A stretch of DNA of 32,210 bases, taken from positions 1 through 32,210 of the IMG/VR virus record IMGVR_UViG_3300033415_000010; one strand, written 5' to 3'. This DNA is from a virus. Its lineage: Duplodnaviria; Caudoviricetes. Under the pieces are notes generated by a model. The model searched no databases. It was given only the letters and a program-made list of their open reading frames with translations, and was not told the origin of the DNA. Shown here piece after piece: positions 6,773 through 17,001 of the stretch. A program made the translations under genes and the position numbers. Positions within the stretch are counted from its first letter, which is position 1, and every line of letters begins with the position of its first letter.

Positions 6773-7302
6773 TTCTTTTCCACGTTGAATATTGCGTAAG
6801 GCGCCTTGCCGTCATCGAACCAGTCGGAGCCGAGACAGTAGACTTTTGGGAAGGTATCGAATGGGGCGTCGGTGAGGGGCGCCCCGTTGATGTCGTGGTC
6901 TGTGAGGGCGTTGTTGAGGTCACCAGCTCCGGGCACACACGGAGAACAGAAGCAGGCGTAGGTGTAGTAGGGCGACTTGAGAACAAACAGGTCGTTGTCG
7001 AGGCAACCCGTGATAACGTATCCGTCCTTCTCGTACACGTAGTCGCCCAAACGATCTTCCCAATGCAGGGAAAGTTCCTCGGCAACTTCGTCTTCGTCCA
7101 CGTCGTCGGTGCCGGGTTCCAGGTGTCGCTCTCGGAGGGCTTCGTCAAGCGCCAGCTTCCAAGCACGGTTCTCGCCGTAAGCCATGAGGTCGTCAAGGGC
7201 CTCGGGTGAGACGCTGTTCTGAGATATGACCCCGTAACGGATACCCGTTGCGAGGTCGATGTTGGTGGTGTTGCCACCGTAGTTTATGCCGCTGGATTTC
7301 AT
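6769..7302 (-). CDS. acidic conserved phage protein
   Basis: TGIRYGVISQN, CFCSPCVPGAGDL and YCLGSDWF motifs; strongly Asp/Glu-rich. Confidence 0.75.
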   Translation of the reverse strand: MKSSGINYGGNTTNIDLATGIRYGVISQNSVSPEALDDLMAYGENRAWKLALDEALRERHLEPGTDDVDEDEVAEELSLHWEDRLGDYVYEKDGYVITGCLDNDLFVLKSPYYTYACFCSPCVPGAGDLNNALTDHDINGAPLTDAPFDTFPKVYCLGSDWFDDGKAPYAIFNVEKK

Positions 7303-7514
7303 TCTTCCTCCTCGTTTTCCACAGTGTAGTCGGCGTTCAGAGCAAGCAGCTCCCGGAACTCAGGGAGCCGGGAGTCCACCCACTCGACAAACTCATCGTA
7401 TTCCGAGAGCTTAGAAAGCTCGATGGCCAGCTTCGTGACTTGGGCACCGTAGGCTTTCTCCGCCCCGACCACGATGATCCCGCCTTTTAGTTGGTATGCG
7501 TCTAGTTTCTTCAT
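7299..7514 (-). CDS. small acidic hypothetical protein
   Basis: 71 aa, ends ENEEEE; ATGA overlap. Confidence 0.7.
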   Translation of the reverse strand: MKKLDAYQLKGGIIVVGAEKAYGAQVTKLAIELSKLSEYDEFVEWVDSRLPEFRELLALNADYTVENEEEE

Positions 7515-7581
7515 GTTATTTTAGTTGGTATGCGTCTAGTTTCTTCGTGTTATTTTAGTAACCTTCGTACTGCGAAGGTGT

Positions 7582-7752: not shown

Positions 7753-7814
7753 TTGGCTGCCTTTTTGCTGGGTTTTTTCCCGCCTTTTAGTTGGTATGCG
7801 TCTAGTTTCTTCAT
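7749..7814 (-). pseudogene. 21-aa duplicate of the N-terminus of gene 7299-7514
   Basis: MKKLDAYQLKGGKKPSKKAAK-stop, ATGA-coupled to the HTH gene. Confidence 0.5.
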
Positions 7815-7820
7815 GTTAGT

Positions 7821-8718: not shown

Positions 8719-10155
8719 TTAAATCTGTTCAGTGGTTTCGACGGTGACGGTTGCTGTGGCGGGCTCCGGCATGACAAGCTCAGGTGTCTCGGTCGTGACA
8801 CTCTCGATGCGTGCGTTGTGGGGCTGAGTAACAACCGGAGCAGGTTCAAGCGAGGAAAGCTTCTTCCTAAGAGGACGCAGCCAACCAAGCTCGACGCAGC
8901 GAGCGAAGAGGTAGGGATACGCCTTGCGATTCGAGCGCACCCAAGGGATGAAATCCTGGGTGAAGTCGAGCCCGGTGAGCGCACGACAGGGACCGCAGAA
9001 CTCCACCACTGCGGCAGAGAACTCAATGGCTGCCAGGATACGCTCCGAGCGGGTGTTGCCCTTAAAAATACGGAACTCAATCGTAGCCGCGTTGGTCAAG
9101 TTGACCGCCTCGTAGCGGTCACCTTCGTACTTGGCGTCTCGGAACATCTTCGAGGATTTTAGCTCGGAGTAGTGGCCGCTCTTTCGACGCGCAATTCGCT
9201 CGACGTAGCCGTTGTTCCCCGGGCTATTGATAAAGACCAGTATCCTACCGATCTGGAGGTGTGTCAGCGGAGCACGACTGACATGGACGTGAATGCCGCA
9301 CTTGTCATTGTCGCCACTAAGACCCGAGCGGACTTGGTTCCACCGCACGGAGTCCCAAGTCTTGCGGTGTTCGTCAAGCGACATGGGCGCACTCACGATC
9401 TCAAAACCGTTTCCGATACTGCCGTCATGGGCACAGAGAACGCGGTCCCTTTCGCTGTTCAGCGCATCGAGGACACTCTGCGCCTTGACGGAACAATCCC
9501 CGTCGTACTGGACTTCCACTTCGACACCGTACCAGAGAGGGCCTTCACCAATCTTCTTCGGGATCTCGTAGCTGTGGTAGTTGTGGATCGGACCGGAGTC
9601 TTCGTCTACCTCGTGGCAATTTTCGCAGCAGTCTTGACCCCCGCTCCAGTCATCCCCATCAACCCAAGTGTCGCAACACTCGCAGTAGTGGAAGTTATCC
9701 CGAGCATACTGATTCAAGTACAATCCGTTTAAGCCCCGGACCTCGACGAAACTGTTGTCACTGGAATAATACTGCTGATAGCCTTCGCAGAAGGTGTAGT
9801 CCCGATCCCGGACAGGCGTGCAGACCACGCGTTCCTCGGCGCTTCGCCTACGATACGTTGAGTAGGTGCGATAGACCGGGTGCAGGTCGTCTTGATAGTA
9901 GGTGTCCCCGGTCTCATCGCAGGTGCCATAGCTGTCGCTGTAGCAGCCCCCGCAGATCAGGCGACCGTCATGCGTCGTGTGCATCTCGTCGCGCTTACTA
10001 TAAGTGTGGCAGTCATCACACTCGGCGTACTCCTCGTGGAACTCGTCGTCCTCGGACTCGTGGACCCAGCCCACGTTGTCGTACTCTTTCCAGTTATCAG
10101 ACGCGGGAAACTCCGTGCCGCGGTAGTCGCTGGTTCTCAGGATATTTTCAGACAT
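8719..10155 (-). CDS. putative amidoligase (COOH-NH2 ligase, glutamine synthetase-like fold) with N-terminal Cys-rich repeats
   Basis: YGVEVE, HDGS..GFEIVSAP, CGIHVHV, RYEAVN, TIEFRIFKG; several CxxC pairs at the N-terminus. Confidence 0.88.
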   Translation of the reverse strand: MSENILRTSDYRGTEFPASDNWKEYDNVGWVHESEDDEFHEEYAECDDCHTYSKRDEMHTTHDGRLICGGCYSDSYGTCDETGDTYYQDDLHPVYRTYSTYRRRSAEERVVCTPVRDRDYTFCEGYQQYYSSDNSFVEVRGLNGLYLNQYARDNFHYCECCDTWVDGDDWSGGQDCCENCHEVDEDSGPIHNYHSYEIPKKIGEGPLWYGVEVEVQYDGDCSVKAQSVLDALNSERDRVLCAHDGSIGNGFEIVSAPMSLDEHRKTWDSVRWNQVRSGLSGDNDKCGIHVHVSRAPLTHLQIGRILVFINSPGNNGYVERIARRKSGHYSELKSSKMFRDAKYEGDRYEAVNLTNAATIEFRIFKGNTRSERILAAIEFSAAVVEFCGPCRALTGLDFTQDFIPWVRSNRKAYPYLFARCVELGWLRPLRKKLSSLEPAPVVTQPHNARIESVTTETPELVMPEPATATVTVETTEQI

Positions 10156-10673: not shown

Positions 10674-10679
10674 GGCATG

Positions 10680-10710
10680 AAAAAACCCGCCTTGGTTGAA
10701 GGCGGGTTTT
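10680..10710 (-). terminator. intrinsic terminator
   Basis: AAAACCCGCC/GGCGGGTTTT stem with U-tract on the minus strand. Confidence 0.75.
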
Positions 10711-11150: not shown

Positions 11151-11170
11151 TTGATTTATCCGGTTAAAAG

Positions 11171-11210
11171 AAAAACCCGGCTGCGGAGCAAGTCTCATTC
11201 AGCCGGGTTT
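11171..11210 (-). terminator. intrinsic terminator
   Basis: AAACCCGGCTG/CAGCCGGGTTT stem followed by a U-tract on the minus strand. Confidence 0.7.
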
Positions 11211-11247: not shown

Positions 11248-11460
11248 CTAGGCGTCTCGCCTCCCCTCAATCACAAAGGGAAGAGTTCTGCCTGGACCTC
11301 CGTTTATCTTGTGCAGCTCCTTGCGGAGCGTCTGAAGGATGAACGCGGTACGTGTCATCCCTAGATTGTGCGCCATGCTTGTAACTTGGGCAAGTGTGCC
11401 GGGGTCGAAGCTGACGCTTGTTGGCACGGTTAAGCGTGCCGGATGGTATCTGGTTGTCAT
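11248..11460 (-). CDS. ribbon-helix-helix (CopG/Arc-like) DNA-binding protein
   Basis: TSVSFDPGTLAQVTSMAHNLGMTRTAFILQTL; the track's N-terminal extension only reads through the repeats. Confidence 0.75.
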   Translation of the reverse strand: MTTRYHPARLTVPTSVSFDPGTLAQVTSMAHNLGMTRTAFILQTLRKELHKINGGPGRTLPFVIEGRRDA

Positions 11461-11464
11461 AATG

Positions 11465-11657
11465 CCACACGCAAGCCTTGGGTGATTGGCCAAAGGTTTG
11501 CGTGTGGAAAGTGAAAGACGACTTGCTTGTAATAAGTCGTCTTTGTGGGGTACCACTACCTGTAGTGTGGGTACTCCTACAGGTTGTGGTCTATGCGACA
11601 AATTTTCTTTGCTTAGGACCACAACCTGTAGTGTTGGTACTCCTACAGGTTGTGGTC
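11465..11657. repeat. cluster of four palindromes, the last two a 41-bp direct repeat
   Basis: IRs at 11465-11507 and 11514-11544; GACCACAACCTGTAG-N11-CTACAGGTTGTGGTC at 11617-11657 with a variant at 11551-11591. Confidence 0.9.
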
Positions 11658-11678
11658 TGATGTAAAAAAGATTTATCG

Positions 11679-12257
11679 TCACACCATTCCTGCAAGCCGG
11701 AAGCTATAAAAGCCCCGGTGCGCCGGATCTCTGTCAGGGACACCCAAGATGACGTGATCTGACAGCTCAATCCCGAGGATGCGCGCAGCTTCCCTGAGTT
11801 GCCGGGTGATAGCCAAGTCTGAAGAACTAGGCTCCGGGTCGCCACTTGGGTGGTTGTGCGCTATGGCAATGCAGGCCGCACCATCCCGGATGGCTTGGCG
11901 GAAGACCTCGCGGGGATGCGCCAAACTCTGAGTTGCCGTGCCGGACGTGACTTCAGTGACACGAATCACCCTGCGCCGGGTGTTCATGCTGATTGTCCAA
12001 AACTTCTCGATTTCAAGGCCGTAGGCCTTGGGCAGGAGAAGTTTGTAGATGTCTTCCGGCGCTGCCAAGACAGCAGGGGGCGGGTTTGCCGAGGTAGCAG
12101 CCTCTTTCAAGAGAGACTGCGCGGCAACCAAGGCCGCTTTTCGGCGGGGGGAAAGACGGACTGGGCAATCTTGTACATCGATCTTGGATAACCCGCCTTC
12201 CTGGAGTATCCAGTCACAGGCCGGACCTGGACCGATGAGTGCTTCGATGGCGTTCAT
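11679..12257 (-). CDS. radC: RadC-like JAB/MPN domain protein
   Basis: E-x-F, HPREVFRQAI, AHNHPSGDPEPSSSD, LGIELSDHVI. Confidence 0.93.
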   Translation of the reverse strand: MNAIEALIGPGPACDWILQEGGLSKIDVQDCPVRLSPRRKAALVAAQSLLKEAATSANPPPAVLAAPEDIYKLLLPKAYGLEIEKFWTISMNTRRRVIRVTEVTSGTATQSLAHPREVFRQAIRDGAACIAIAHNHPSGDPEPSSSDLAITRQLREAARILGIELSDHVILGVPDRDPAHRGFYSFRLAGMV

Positions 12258-12343
12258 AAAGAGCCCCTCCGGAGCTCGATTAGGGTGATGGCTGCGAGAA
12301 GCACGAGCAGGCACCCGCAAAAGATTAGGAAAAACATGGCATG

Positions 12344-12372
12344 AAAAAAAACCCACCTCTTTTGAAGGCGGG
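12344..12372 (-). terminator. intrinsic terminator
   Basis: Minus strand CCCGCCT-TCAAAAG-AGGTGGG followed by T8. Confidence 0.7.
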
Positions 12373-12379
12373 CTTGGGA

Positions 12380-12475
12380 TTAACTTTTACGTGCCGCACG
12401 GGCGATGGTGCCCGTGCTGGGGAAGGAGACGCCATCAATTACGATGGCGTGCGGGGTGAGGTTGACCAGCGGCAT
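12380..12475 (-). pseudogene. 31-aa remnant of an NLTPH-motif phage protein
   Basis: MPLVNLTPHAIVIDGVSFPSTGTIARAARKS-stop; resembles the N-terminus of longer phage proteins recalled from memory. Confidence 0.5.
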
Positions 12476-12485
12476 GGCTGCAAAG

Positions 12486-13237
12486 CGAAACCCTGAACGG
12501 AATTGCTCAGGGTTTCGTGTTGAAGTCAAAAGCCAGTGGGTGATTATCCCCACTGGCTTTGAGGTTGAACGTCCATGCTAACTTTTCTCCGCATGGACTG
12601 CGTGTTTTACTTCGCACCTTAAAAGATCGCTGCGAAGGCATGTCGGTAAAGCCGGACATGCTGGCTTCTGACACGGGAAAAACTCAGGTCGCGAGACCTG
12701 CTTTCCTGGTGTGGAGAGTGTTTTAATCCGCTTCTCTCAACGGTTTACTAAAGAAGGCTTTTGCTTTTGTGGCCAGCCAAACAAACCACGTAACGAGCCC
12801 TTGAGATCAGGTCCGCCTGGCTTCTAGGTGCTAGGTCCACAAGCTCGCGCAAAGGCGTTTTGCTTGTGGCTTCATGGGATGCGCAGAACGCGTCCCGATG
12901 GGTAGAGTTAAAACTCGTCCCCATGCTTTGCTTTTCAGTTCAAAGCCCTTGGAAGCCAATTAAAAGAATCGGCAAAGCAGTAGCTTAACCTCACTACAAG
13001 GTGCCCTTTGCTTTTCTGGCCGAATCTGGCCCCGCTTTATCCCATACTCGGTCTCCATTTGATCCTACCTCTTTTCCCCTGCGCCTTGCGCGGGGTTTCA
13101 AAAGTCGCAGACTATTGCGGGTCTGAGGCTAAGGAGCTTGGGGCGGCTCACCGTGAGCCCCCTTAAAGGGCTTTCTGGCAATGCTTCCGCCTGTACTCCG
13201 TCGAGGGGCGAGAGCCCCGCGCAATGGCGCGGGGCTC
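12486..13237 (-). ncRNA. candidate large structured RNA / 5' leader
   Basis: No ORF of 60 aa or more in any frame; more than 10 closely spaced hairpins; repeated AAAAGCAAA on the minus strand; TTGACG at 13238-13243; strand uncertain. Confidence 0.45.
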
Positions 13238-13303
13238 CGTCAAAATTTACGAGACTTTTCTGTGCGGGATTGCGTGCAATGGCACGCGAGAAAAAGAACT
13301 TTT

Positions 13304-13381
13304 GCAGCTGATAAGGGCTACTTGCTGCCCTCGTAGTGGGAAAACCACTACGAGGGCAGAATAGTAGCCCTTATCAGCTGC
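13304..13381. repeat. 78-bp near-perfect palindrome
   Basis: GCAGCTGATAAGGGCTACT-TG-CTGCCCTCGTAGTGG-GAAAA-CCACTACGAGGGCAG-AAT-AGTAGCCCTTATCAGCTGC. Confidence 0.92.
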
Positions 13382-13591
13382 GCAGCGGCGGGGCGGAGGC
13401 CGGGGCGGGGGCGGCGGAGACGATGGAGGTGGGCATGGGATGGGTGGATTAAGCAAATAGGATTTATCTCAAGGCATTGACTCTAATCCCTACCTATTTA
13501 GTCGGGATTAGCGGAGTCCCTGCTTAAGTGCCGGACTCCTACCCATGCGGAGCGCACCCGAGAGAGGGGCAAAAATCACACCCAAAAATCT

Positions 13592-13621
13592 CGTAAATCG
13601 TTGGTAGTCTAAGGACTTACG
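13592..13621. other. 11-8-11 dyad resembling a tyrosine-recombinase (Xer/cer-type) site
   Basis: CGTAAATCGTT-GGTAGTCT-AAGGACTTACG; arms are 9/11 inverted matches. Confidence 0.4.
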
Positions 13622-14087
13622 TAAGTGCCTAAAGCCTCTGAAAAGAGACTAATGGCTGATTGATAATGAGATCCAGTATCAGCGAGGGGGGCCTCCGGGG
13701 GACTGGGCACCTGGCTGCACGCGAAAGCATATGGGTGCTTTCCGCACTTTCCGAAGTTAGGCCCGTTTTCATCAGTTAGGTTTAGTTAAGTTTATTCCAG
13801 AGACATACGATGTCCGACCCCCGGATTCAAGATTTACGACCATCTAAGAAAGTTAGGCTCACCTAACATTATTAGGAAAGCCGTAGGACATGCCGTGTCC
13901 GACCCCCGATTAGGTTTACTCTAGTTTATCCGACGAGAATGAGTTTCAACACGAGGGCTCCGAACGGTTCTTATCTTAAGTAAACAAGTAGCGATAAATG
14001 CTAGCCCCCCGCACCCCCTCGGAGTGCCGGGCCGGAACGGCCAACAAATGGGCCATTGGTACAAAGTCAGTCCAGCCACTTTTGATA

Positions 14088-14355
14088 CCACGGACCACAC
14101 ACAACCCACTCCCCCTGCCGGAGATACCCCAATACAGGTCCAATGGTCCAATCTTTTTTAATAATAAAATTATATTATATACATAGATATACACACACAC
14201 ACACGCTATATGTAACGTCTCGTATAAGGGAAGGACTACCCCCCCCCCTAACCTGTGGACCACGGACCAATTTGGGGTTAACCCCTTGGCCCATCGTAGG
14301 TTTGTGCGGGTCCAACGTCAAAAATAGCCCCCGTCCCACCCCAAAGCGGTCCATC
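14088..14355. other. candidate replication origin
   Basis: Seven GGWCCA hexamers around an AT-rich, (AT)n(AC)n core at 14152-14213, just downstream of the D5 helicase gene. Confidence 0.55.
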
Positions 14356-14404: not shown

Positions 14405-16054
14405 CTATTCTTTATCGTCAGTTTTTACAAAACTCGACCCCCGGGGCTTGATCCCGAAGTATTGCCAAGGTCTTGTAATAGTGCCGTCTTCTCGGTAAAC
14501 CCGCCGCTTGGCTTTGACCAAACCCCGCTTTGCCAAGTAAAGCGTGAAATCCGTCGATCTCTTCGGCACGACGCTCATTCCCTTGCACCAGTCGATGTAA
14601 TCGCGGCGGAGTCCATCTGGCGTGGCCCTGTACTGGCTCCGGTCGGCTGTCTTGGCAGTCAGGTTGGCCTCGTCGAGGTCGTACCGCTCCTCCAACGACT
14701 CCCACCAGTCGAGCAGGTGATCTTGGCTTTCCCGGTATTCTTCCGTAATACGAATCAAAGCCTCTGGAATCGCAAGGCCCTTGCGACCGCCACCCCTTGC
14801 TTGCCAGTCCAGGCACCCCTTCAGGCACCAGTTGAGGATAGCCGACCGAGCCGTCGGGTCGGTAAGCAAAGTACGTTTGACCAAGTGGTCCCTCTTCTTC
14901 TCTGGCACCGCCTTGAAGTGAACCTTGACCATTCGACGCCATACGCCGGGGTCCTCGGATTCCGTTCTAGGATCGAAGTTCGAGACGAGCCAGATTTTCC
15001 AAGTCGGGTTTAGCACATCCATCTTCGTCTGCTGGAGGGCACGGGCGGTAACTTTCTCACCCCCCGATAGCTGCTTGATCCTACCTTCGTTGAGCCGAGC
15101 CCTGGAATCGCCTTCGGTGGCGAACACGAACCGGGCACCCAGTAGGTTGTAAAGGTCGGGGCTGGGGGCGGCACCGTCACGGGTGTTCTTGCCCAGGGCG
15201 CAGAACATCTCAAACGGGGGCTTGTAGCTGTAATCCCCCAGCATATCGGCAAAGGCTTCGGTCAGCGTGGTCTTTCCGCTGCCCCCGTCGCCCGAGATCA
15301 GGAAGAACGACTCCGCCTCAACGTCCCCAGTCATACTCATCCCAAAGCACCTGGCGAGGAAATCGCAAACCCCAGGCACTTGGATCTCCAAATCCTCCAA
15401 GAAGCGGTCGAGAACCTCAGACTTGGCGCTAGGATCGAAGCGTACCCCCGCCATTTTGCTTTGGAAGAGAGATTTCTCGTGAGGCAGCAGAAGACCCGTC
15501 TTCAGGTCCAAAACGCCGTTTTTGACGTTTAACAGCCAAGGATTAGAATCGAGGGCACCGGGGTCGAGGTCGATCTGGGGGTTGCACTTCGCTAGGCTGA
15601 CGGCAGACGAGATGTGGCCGGACCCCTCATGAGACTCGGCTTTTGAGATCATTGTAGCCCCGCCCTTCTCGCCACCGTAGCGCAGGATTGTCTGTTGGAG
15701 CCAGTCACGGGCGCATTTCTTGGCGAGGGTCTTGGCAATGTTGCCTTCCACGTCCTTCGAGTTGCGGTTGAAGGACCACCGGGCACCATCCCAATAAGCC
15801 CAGCCTAGTGCAGGAACATGGCGATAGTCGCCCTTCATCGCCTCGATCAGTCGGTACGAGGCGTCGAGGTCGGTGCTGATCCCCACGGAATGTCCCTCGC
15901 GGGAGAAGTCGAGCACCGGGGCGACTGGAGCCTTGGGAATGGGGACTATCGGAATGTTTAGGGTGAAAGCCAGGGGTTGGTTTCCGTAGGCGGCGGGCTT
16001 GCTGTTTCCCATTTCTTCCGGGAAACCGTCGTTTGAGAGTCTTGATTTGGTCAT
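14405..16054 (-). CDS. P4/D5-family primase-associated SF3 helicase
   Basis: D5_N features (WAYWDGARW, LLNVKNGVLDLKTG), Walker A GDGGSGKT, GARFVFATE, IKQLSGGE...AR, VWRR; start MTKS overlaps the primase stop (ATGA). Confidence 0.92.
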   Translation of the reverse strand: MTKSRLSNDGFPEEMGNSKPAAYGNQPLAFTLNIPIVPIPKAPVAPVLDFSREGHSVGISTDLDASYRLIEAMKGDYRHVPALGWAYWDGARWSFNRNSKDVEGNIAKTLAKKCARDWLQQTILRYGGEKGGATMISKAESHEGSGHISSAVSLAKCNPQIDLDPGALDSNPWLLNVKNGVLDLKTGLLLPHEKSLFQSKMAGVRFDPSAKSEVLDRFLEDLEIQVPGVCDFLARCFGMSMTGDVEAESFFLISGDGGSGKTTLTEAFADMLGDYSYKPPFEMFCALGKNTRDGAAPSPDLYNLLGARFVFATEGDSRARLNEGRIKQLSGGEKVTARALQQTKMDVLNPTWKIWLVSNFDPRTESEDPGVWRRMVKVHFKAVPEKKRDHLVKRTLLTDPTARSAILNWCLKGCLDWQARGGGRKGLAIPEALIRITEEYRESQDHLLDWWESLEERYDLDEANLTAKTADRSQYRATPDGLRRDYIDWCKGMSVVPKRSTDFTLYLAKRGLVKAKRRVYREDGTITRPWQYFGIKPRGSSFVKTDDKE

Positions 16055-17001
16055 GATGAGTGTTGGTTGAAGAGAGGGTTGAAGAAAAGGACTTCCTGAT
16101 GCTTGCCATTGTCGCGCAAGCCACCGGGCATTCGGGCAAATTGTTCGGGGAACCACATCCGGGGGTCGGCACCGAGCCTGACGGCTGCGCAGAACCAGTC
16201 GCGCAGGGCGCGGGGGTCCGGCTGCGCACGGGCACCGACGTAAACCCAGCCGTGGACGCTCTTGCCGCCCGAGGATACGGCCATCGCCAGGAGTCCACGG
16301 GTGTTTTTGTTAAGTTCCCACAGGAGGCTGGCCTGTTTGTCGGGGGAAAGCTTCGGATTATCGAACTCCACGATCAGAAAACGACGGGCTCCGACGGCAT
16401 CCCGGCAGTGGTGCGAGGTGCTGCCGCGTTTTGTGACGCCCGTTCGCTTGCGCATGGGGTTGGGCACGACGAACTGGCAGTTTTCCAGGGATTCGTCGCT
16501 CCAGTCTTGCAGCGGGAGTGTGCGGAAGGTGGACGCCTCGCGTCCGCAGCAGACAAGTTCCTCCGCCTTGAAGAAATGACGCAGGGGGAGCCTCGGACTT
16601 TTCGCGCTTCGCGCCCGCAGGTCGTCCAGGCAGCGCACTTCGCTGGCTTTCACCACCCGGGAGCTGAGGCGCGGGGCGAAGGGGGCCTCGTCCTCGGAGA
16701 TTCCCCTGAAATTCGCGGGCCAGCCCGTGACGGGATTGAAGATTCCAAGGCTTTCTTCGAGGGTGAAGCTGCGTTTGTTCTCCAGGTCGCACTCGAAGGC
16801 TCCTGCGACGAAGCCCTCGATCTCCCGCTCGGGGATCTCGCGGCGGAGAGTCCAGGTTTCGCAGGCTGCGCGCAGGAGCTGCACGCAGTCGCGCTCCGGG
16901 ACGCCCTGACGCCGCAGCGACAGGGCCTGCCTGAAGAGATGCGTGTGGAGTCCGACGGATTCCTCCGGGGGATACAGCATCACGGTGACGGAATCGGCCA
17001 C
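16051..17001 (-). CDS. AEP-type (RepB-like) DNA primase
   Basis: FLIVEFD, SGGKSVHGW and RMPG motifs; adjacent to the D5 helicase. Confidence 0.75.
   Translation of the reverse strand: MADSVTVMLYPPEESVGLHTHLFRQALSLRRQGVPERDCVQLLRAACETWTLRREIPEREIEGFVAGAFECDLENKRSFTLEESLGIFNPVTGWPANFRGISEDEAPFAPRLSSRVVKASEVRCLDDLRARSAKSPRLPLRHFFKAEELVCCGREASTFRTLPLQDWSDESLENCQFVVPNPMRKRTGVTKRGSTSHHCRDAVGARRFLIVEFDNPKLSPDKQASLLWELNKNTRGLLAMAVSSGGKSVHGWVYVGARAQPDPRALRDWFCAAVRLGADPRMWFPEQFARMPGGLRDNGKHQEVLFFNPLFNQHSS

Follow-up and report, generated by a model that had tools for sequence, protein, structure and literature searches.

The window, that is the whole stretch of DNA analysed, is a linear virus record of 32.2 kb with a completeness estimate of 47%. 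Its right half carries genes for helicase, exonuclease, DNA polymerase, RuvC and terminase, followed by a probable portal gene. The left 14 kb form a leftward arm of mostly small genes, those for a DNA methyltransferase, an amidoligase and RadC among them, and from its gene content and layout this arm is probably the early operon of the phage. Since the nearest named relatives of RadC, the one basis of the assignment, come from Opitutaceae and other Verrucomicrobia, the host probably belongs to Verrucomicrobiota.

Between an origin-like region, downstream of the primase-helicase gene (14405-16156, ending at 14405, with primase/D5 matches), and a series of three terminators, T1-T3, lies a strongly folded stretch. 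Its features and those of its flanks are listed in leftward order; G001 and G002 are related phages described below.

14293..14321, minus strand: best sigma-70-like promoter into the leftward arm, TTGACG-17-TACGAT, a consensus match only
13750..14300, no strand assigned: origin-like region with repeats D3 and D6 and the AT-rich inverted repeat I18
13681..13700, no strand assigned: 20-nt G/C motif, common to G002 (L091:16700-16720) and, more loosely, G001 (L088 near 8135)
13587..13624, no strand assigned: 38-nt imperfect palindrome, 82% identical to a G002 copy in inverted orientation
13374..13436, minus strand: 20-codon Pro/Ala/Ser-rich ORF, in the place of the 149-aa first gene of G001 and G002
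13304..13381, minus strand: 78-nt hairpin (19 + 15 bp), directly before the boxA-like core
13293..13299, minus strand: 7-nt boxA-like core GTTCTTT, just outside the interval 12486..13243 marked by an earlier note on this DNA; 3' half of the host boxA unmatched
12486..13290, minus strand: folded body of about 13 local hairpins or small junctions with A-rich linkers
13007..13015, minus strand: AAAAGCAAA, copy 1, inside a 24-nt repeat 79% identical to a copy at 12751-12774
12927..12935, minus strand: AAAAGCAAA, copy 2
12760..12768, minus strand: AAAAGCAAA, copy 3
12380..12475, minus strand: 31-codon ORF, its stop codon ending 4 nt before the T1 stem
12344..12375, minus strand: terminator T1, 11-bp stem with 3 G-U pairs, -15.2 kcal/mol, U8
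11679..12337, minus strand: first genes after T1, a 27-aa hydrophobic ORF and then the RadC/JAB gene
11167..11207, minus strand: terminator T2, next ATG 25 nt after the first U
10677..10706, minus strand: terminator T3, start codon immediately after

Short direct repeats of two families and an AT-rich stretch mark the origin-like region and suggest a replication origin; the region lies 0.5-1.8 kb from the folded stretch, and AT-rich, repeat-rich stretches follow the primase gene in G001 and G002 too. The G/C landmark, near-identical in the window and G002, sits between the origin-like region and the folded stretch and is possibly a genome end or origin signal. The palindrome is a candidate operator over weak promoters, with a weak -10 match near 13633. 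The 20-codon ORF gave no family match and is possibly a relic of the first gene.

Folding and gene content of the stretch

The earlier note had described a hairpin-dense region without ORFs, and both properties were borne out. No ORF of 60 aa or more is present in 12357-13246 (longest, 58 aa), a scarcity matched by only 7 of 1000 dinucleotide shuffles. All eight stems that it named were found at their places (12486/12517, 12529/12560, 12571/12598, 12610/12637, 12638/12661, 12685-12700, 12837/12869 and 13212/13237), and perfect stems of 7 bp or longer number 7, where 300 shuffles had 0.9 on average and never more than 5. The folding z-scores of 12470-13250 are -7.7 on the minus and -9.2 on the plus strand, with none of 20 shuffles equal on either. 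The folded region placed at 12486..13243 is therefore real but larger than claimed, extending over about 12345-13381, from the 78-nt hairpin to the terminator T1. In a two-strand scan it was the best-folded 750 nt within the window, and in a one-strand scan one of 46 control phage loci folded better.

On the minus strand, 44% of the unpaired bases of 12340-13400 are A (139/314). The confident helices of the predicted minus-strand fold are mostly local, and no loop-loop matches of at least 6 bp were found in it. On sequence grounds, leftward transcription of the stretch as a leader RNA is likely, and observations that count for or against a leader are marked as such below. One of those against is the paired fraction: the value predicted for the stretch, 0.60, is no different from the 0.61 of a coding control, so the fold gives no sign of hiding Rho sites.

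The modular hairpins raise the idea of a precursor cut into small RNAs, or of short peptide genes set among the hairpins. The hairpin at 12529-12560 has a U-rich tail behind it and was scored as a terminator, and minus-strand ORFs of 58, 50 and 32 codons occur in the stretch. However, none of these three ORFs gave a family match, the region is depleted of ORFs relative to shuffles, and no fixed-length repeat unit was found in it; this explanation is highly improbable.

Certain words recur in the stretch. The three copies of AAAAGCAAA reported on the minus strand were confirmed, with no other copies in the window; any 9-mer was present three times in 21 of 2000 shuffles. For AAGC the count is 17, with 7.5 expected (0/2000 shuffles). 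The several GAAGCC of the earlier note are present as 3 copies, a weak excess over the 0.56 expected (37/2000 shuffles). The leader of G001 (L088:6760-7500, minus strand) has CGCCCGC six times and GCTATGC four times, and the repeated words differ from phage to phage. Four hairpins with a C-TAT-G loop were also seen in this G001 leader.

The stretch could not be matched by eye to a known family, and the Rfam search agreed: 0 matches in the window at the gathering threshold, with GOLLD, ROOL and OLE among the families covered. With E up to 10, only sub-threshold matches of hairpin type appeared (mir-3660, 36.8 of 70 bits; Leu_leader, 28.6 of 50 bits). No tRNA was found in the window, the record being 47% complete. 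HDV-like/theta and hammerhead cores gave 0 matches on both strands of the window, G001 and G002, using a home-made descriptor without positive-control validation and a CUGANGA search. Ribozyme cores and a CsrA-type GGA array were rejected as candidates. These observations support a real, non-coding stretch without an Rfam family.

Relatives, homolog searches and strand

Three relatives were reached through portal alignment, among the best 80 of 342 portal matches. Portal identity to the window is about 50% for each of G001 and G002 and 36% for G003. G001 is a complete genome of 68.6 kb, with a 3050-aa protein that has no Pfam match and no DxDxD motif. A common gene order is found in the window, G001 and G002: primase, an AT- and repeat-rich region, the short G/C landmark, the position of the first gene, then about 800 nt without evident genes, a terminator and small genes. 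The equivalent stretch measures about 830 nt in both G001 and G002; in G003 a short version of about 420 nt runs from a promoter-like site (L093:9554) to the terminator at 9099. A strong early-sense terminator ends it in G001, G002 and G003 (-19.6, -20.8 and -24.4 kcal/mol) and so, including the window, in 4 of 4 phages. The first gene of G001 (L088:7544-7993) and G002 (L091:16018-16467), absent from the window, encodes a 149-aa protein, 36% identical between the two. No known family and no relatives beyond itself were found for this protein, and its structure model is of low confidence (pLDDT 59.5), with no confident fold.

The stretches of G001 and G002 have folding z-scores of -6.8 and -5.0, which counts for a leader; in the coarse one-strand scan the two reached only -2.1, inside the range of the 46 control loci, which counts against it. 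Across the window and its three relatives the layout is kept and the sequence is not, and this also counts for a leader. Pairwise alignments among the four leaders gave z of at most 1.8 and no shared sequence.

Searches for homologs of the stretch were negative by blastn against annotated phages and within its own genome. Scans of viral contigs with primase or amidoligase alone gave nothing usable, nor did portal alignment against genome contigs; against genomes of the likely host phylum, portal alignment gave 0/401. By nhmmer, the leader had no match in the collected phage loci, in 80 RadC loci (best 80 of 556), in 20 stretches of portal relatives (among the best 80 of 342) or in 75 helicase loci (best 79 of 304 helicase matches). 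None of 20 stretches from more distant portal relatives was comparably folded, the best (-2.5) being at a tRNA/transposase site. A metagenome scan with the 20-nt landmark motif returned six loci, two of them copies of the phage and four with the motif alone. Two microbial-mat DNA assemblies, possibly the source of the window, are identical to it. No similar element was found in the open-licence literature.

Another phage group has a hairpin-rich, gene-poor stretch of its own (L131:7900-9250, L132:9180-10500, L130:7880-9100 and L134:7000-8000), 1.2-1.4 kb long and lying between a sigma-like ORF and the small terminase gene. L130-L132 are 73-84% identical over about 1.3 kb, and L134 shares shorter pieces. 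There is no Rfam match, and 19 of 121 predicted pairs show compensatory change among the four sequences. Homology of this conserved element to the window's stretch was rejected; of the two, the element is the more promising as a new, alignable RNA family.

Were the stretch a large non-coding RNA in its own right, from a new family, of GOLLD/ROOL-like size and working as a decoy, scaffold or cage, T1 would be no more than its 3' end. Such an RNA would suit the length (about 800-950 nt) and the terminator at the 3' end in 4/4 phages, the A-rich linkers and repeated words (AAGC and AAAAGCAAA in the window, CGCCCGC and GCTATGC in G001), and the boxA-like core in front, as for stable RNAs. According to PMC9241854, phage K makes long non-coding RNAs of 635 and 1154 nt, lnc001 and lnc002; the stretch resembles these and GOLLD/ROOL in size (650-1150 nt), phage location and dense base pairing. 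GOLLD and ROOL, as described in bioRxiv 2024.12.08.627333, have hundreds of alignable members. Unlike them, the window's stretch has no Rfam match at E 10, no tRNA nearby and no sequence common even to the two nearest relatives; its helices are mostly local, no kissing loops are predicted on the minus strand, and its repeated words are not those of the other phages. Hfq, one candidate target of an A-rich sponge, was found in 0/41 genomes of the likely host class, and the Hfq sponge was rejected. We regard a stand-alone RNA as unlikely.

The strand and the molecule were considered from the base pairs. A point in favour of a leader is that in local folding (base-pair span limited to 80 nt) the early-sense strand had the better z-score in 3/3 phages (-8.0 vs -6.4, -3.4 vs -1.9 and -4.8 vs -3.0). 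On the early-sense strand of G002, the gain from G-U pairs is 67.6 kcal/mol against 44.7 +/- 6.4 in shuffles, 3.6 SD above; this excess is an RNA-type signal and counts for a leader. Two findings count against one: the window has no G-U excess on either strand, and its global folding is stronger on the plus strand. For these same two reasons, DNA palindromes would give the same signal. A DNA-level element by the origin or genome end (palindromic operators, cruciforms or priming sites in an array, or a plus-strand pre-primer RNA directed at the origin) fits the mostly Watson-Crick stems of the window, whose z-scores without G-U pairs are equal on the two strands (-8.1 and -8.0), the GNRA loop on the plus strand at 12691-94, the closeness of the origin-like region, and a similar hairpin cluster at 11460-11680. 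The terminator polarity, early-sense in 4/4 phages, and the G-U excess of G002 speak against it, as does the phage's own primase; C-GNA-G DNA triloops are not enriched (1/21 hairpins). An element of this kind is quite unlikely. N4-type GNA-triloop hairpin promoters were rejected on the same count and on the Pfam and DxDxD results for the 3050-aa protein of G001.

boxA-like sites, promoters and terminators

To evaluate boxA-like sites, a host profile was built from 40 sites of 30 rRNA loci in 61 genomes of the likely host class (consensus GTTCTTTGAAAAY; median score 20.2 bits, n=40). The three boxA-like words proposed earlier, at about 12619, 12960 and 13096, fail this profile with at most 3.3 bits (rank 25 of 32198 positions) and were rejected. 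The core at 13293-13299 follows the 78-nt hairpin by 4 nt and the stop of the 20-codon ORF by 74 nt, and is predicted to be mostly single-stranded (unpaired probability 0.5-0.9). It is one of only three copies of GYTCTTT on the window's minus strand. Against the full 13-nt host profile it scores below -0.9 bits and fails, which counts against a leader.

The relatives carry cores at similar places, which counts for a leader. An exact GYTCTTT lies 75 nt after the first-gene stop in G001, the sole copy in 20 kb; cores with one mismatch lie 62 nt after the first-ORF stop in G002 and 2 and 25 nt after the promoter in G003. The core is thus exact in 2/4 phages (window and G001) and one mismatch away in the other two. 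By the host profile, the G002 and G003 sites score 9.6 and 13.9 bits (ranks 3 and 1 of 19988 on their own strand), and the best early-sense boxA site of G001 scores -2.1 bits and is predicted to be paired, which counts against a leader. The background share of 100-nt windows with the core is 0.008, 0.005, 0.26 and 0.18 in the window, G001, G002 and G003; the joint figure of 1.8e-6 overstates significance, because these 100-nt windows were set after the motifs had been seen. Behind control ORFs the core was found in 1 of 180 cases, the G001 first gene itself.

Among host rRNA leaders, 11 of 30 have at least two boxA-type cores, 75-220 nt apart (L153, L160, L162-L165, L171, L173, L175, L177 and L178). 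In these the 3' half of the upstream core mostly deviates, which counts for a leader. In the likely host class, NusB was over the cut-off in 38/41 genomes and Rho in 29/41, again in favour of a leader. Many of the genomes G008 and G011-G050 have two long Rho-like matches (E below 1e-120), possibly two Rho paralogs.

The promoter at 14321 is the only good leftward match, with weak ones near 13633-13816. A start there would add 900 weakly folded bases upstream, which counts against a leader. From 14320 to 1 on the minus strand no sigma-70-like site scored 16 or more, and one weak promoter-like site is present in that arm at 9267, within a gene. The TTGACG that had been noted as pointing into the stretch does exist at 13238-43; it has no -10 hexamer, and a promoter there was rejected. 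Host rRNA-leader promoters look canonical.

The statement that the downstream operon has three intrinsic terminators held on the minus strand, with U-tracts starting at 12351, 11175 and 10685. T1 is the predicted 3' end of the leader. T1 and T3 share stem arm and tail as a 41-nt cassette, 83% identical, with the same start context, and the next ATG lies within 9, 25 and 7 nt of T1, T2 and T3. Since all three abut ATGs and no good promoter lies between them, the downstream genes need read-through or unrecognised promoters, another point for a leader.

The 31-codon ORF before T1 has a leader-peptide-like position, judged from the sequence, and no family support in database searches; a supposed likeness to a protein family starting NLTPH also found no database support and was dropped. 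On general principles, a ribosome at the ORF's stop codon would hinder formation of the T1 hairpin; no literature on the stop-to-stem distance was found. Directly after T1 comes the 27-codon hydrophobic ORF (12337-12254), whose stop overlaps the ATG of RadC/JAB (12257).

Beyond RadC, the second hairpin cluster at 11460-11680 is as strongly folded as the main stretch and contains two 53-nt palindromic units, 87% identical, which we take to resemble paired NrdR boxes. The NrdR-box-like pattern has 3 matches against 0.05 expected, an enrichment that is partly circular because the pattern was fitted to the sequence; the cluster is a possible repressor decoy. Further along the arm, a start-codon stretch occurs three times on the minus strand (7455-7545 and 7770-7820); the beginning of the 7299-7514 ORF is present there in two or three copies, which points to a local duplication.

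The series of three terminators, without a promoter in between, would also suit a processive antiterminator made of RNA only, of the type of HK022 put but much larger, that replaced an N-like first gene since lost. In the window the 149-aa gene is missing and the 20-codon ORF takes its place, and a motif scan found no arginine-rich N-like ORF in the leftward arms of three phages (window, G001 and G002), in the window before T1 in particular. Yet G001 and G002 have both the first gene and the folded stretch, the 149-aa protein is without known family or confident fold, put measures just about 65 nt in two hairpins according to PMC8632103, and expression could be accounted for just as well by leaky terminators or by phage promoters of an unknown type. 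This antiterminator is very unlikely. In G003, a small ORF after the terminator (L093:8258-8596, minus strand) ends in an arginine-rich motif that, we assume, resembles those of lambdoid N proteins; the best boxA-like site is in this phage as well.

Proposed leader and known systems

The best explanation, put forward tentatively, is that the stretch may serve the early operon as an untranslated leader, long and folded, and as its termination gate, in an arrangement like that of an rRNA leader. Host sigma-70 RNA polymerase would start upstream of 13380, and the 78-nt hairpin and boxA-like core would be made first, in the hairpin-then-boxA order of rRNA leaders. Through hairpin and core, host NusB/NusE would be loaded and Rho termination avoided over about 900 bases that carry no ribosomes. 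T1 would end most transcripts and set free a stable folded RNA; a minority would pass T1-T3 and so give expression of RadC, the amidoligase pair and the small genes. How large this minority is could be tuned by translation of the 31-codon ORF.

A wider proposal, which we hold to be doubtful, is that phages of this group produce a large early RNA, 800-950 nt long and not described before, Nus-loaded via an rRNA-style boxA, its sequence free but its position and ends kept. This RNA would be an RNA-only antiterminator, ten times as large as put, or else a stable decoy that engages a host RNA-binding protein via its repeated A-rich words.

If the leader is real, the phage borrowed the strategy of rRNA leaders (hairpin, boxA, Nus factors) for an RNA of about 1 kb free of ribosomes, and its first genes are metered through a series of terminators, in a host phylum with barely studied phages. 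To put, EAR and nut it would add a further, testable example of termination control centred on RNA, and as such leaders would keep their layout while the sequence turns over, covariance searches would miss them. Should it be no more than a folded spacer, the stretch is a control region that is ordinary except for its unusual size.

The T7 early region has an untranslated left end, host promoters and RNase III hairpins. The window shares with it a non-coding stretch and intergenic hairpins heading a host-transcribed early operon, but lacks tandem strong sigma-70 promoters, and its stretch is far more folded than its shuffles. In lambda, the order cro-nutR-tR1 gives a first gene, boxA and then a terminator. 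The window has the same succession of first gene, boxA-like word and terminators, except that its hairpin precedes the boxA-like word instead of following it.

As with HK022 put and B. subtilis EAR, the early-operon terminators are preceded by what would be a folded RNA, and an N-like protein is not evident. The put element has about 65 nt and two hairpins (PMC8632103); the window's element differs in its length of over 800 nt, more than tenfold, in its roughly 13 hairpins and in having no promoter at the 5' edge. It also has no Rfam match, and its antitermination activity is putative. On the features examined, it falls outside the Rfam families, put and N/nut alike.

Ribosomal RNA leaders present a hairpin (boxB) and then boxA, and the hairpin-then-boxA order is described for B. 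subtilis (PMC8632103, PMC13753749); boxA is used outside rRNA as well, as reported in PMC5725501. The rRNA-operon leader, bound by the NusB-NusE-NusA-NusG-SuhB complex, differs in that the window's RNA is not rRNA and has no homologs found, and in that 7 of 12-13 positions of its site match GTTCTTTGAAAAY, short of the full host consensus. What the window has of an rrn-type boxA is the invariant GYTCTTT core, predicted to be mostly single-stranded and just after a 5' hairpin. In both systems a hairpin and then a boxA-like core head a long untranslated folded RNA, and by this analogy the stretch appears most like an rRNA leader set before a phage operon.
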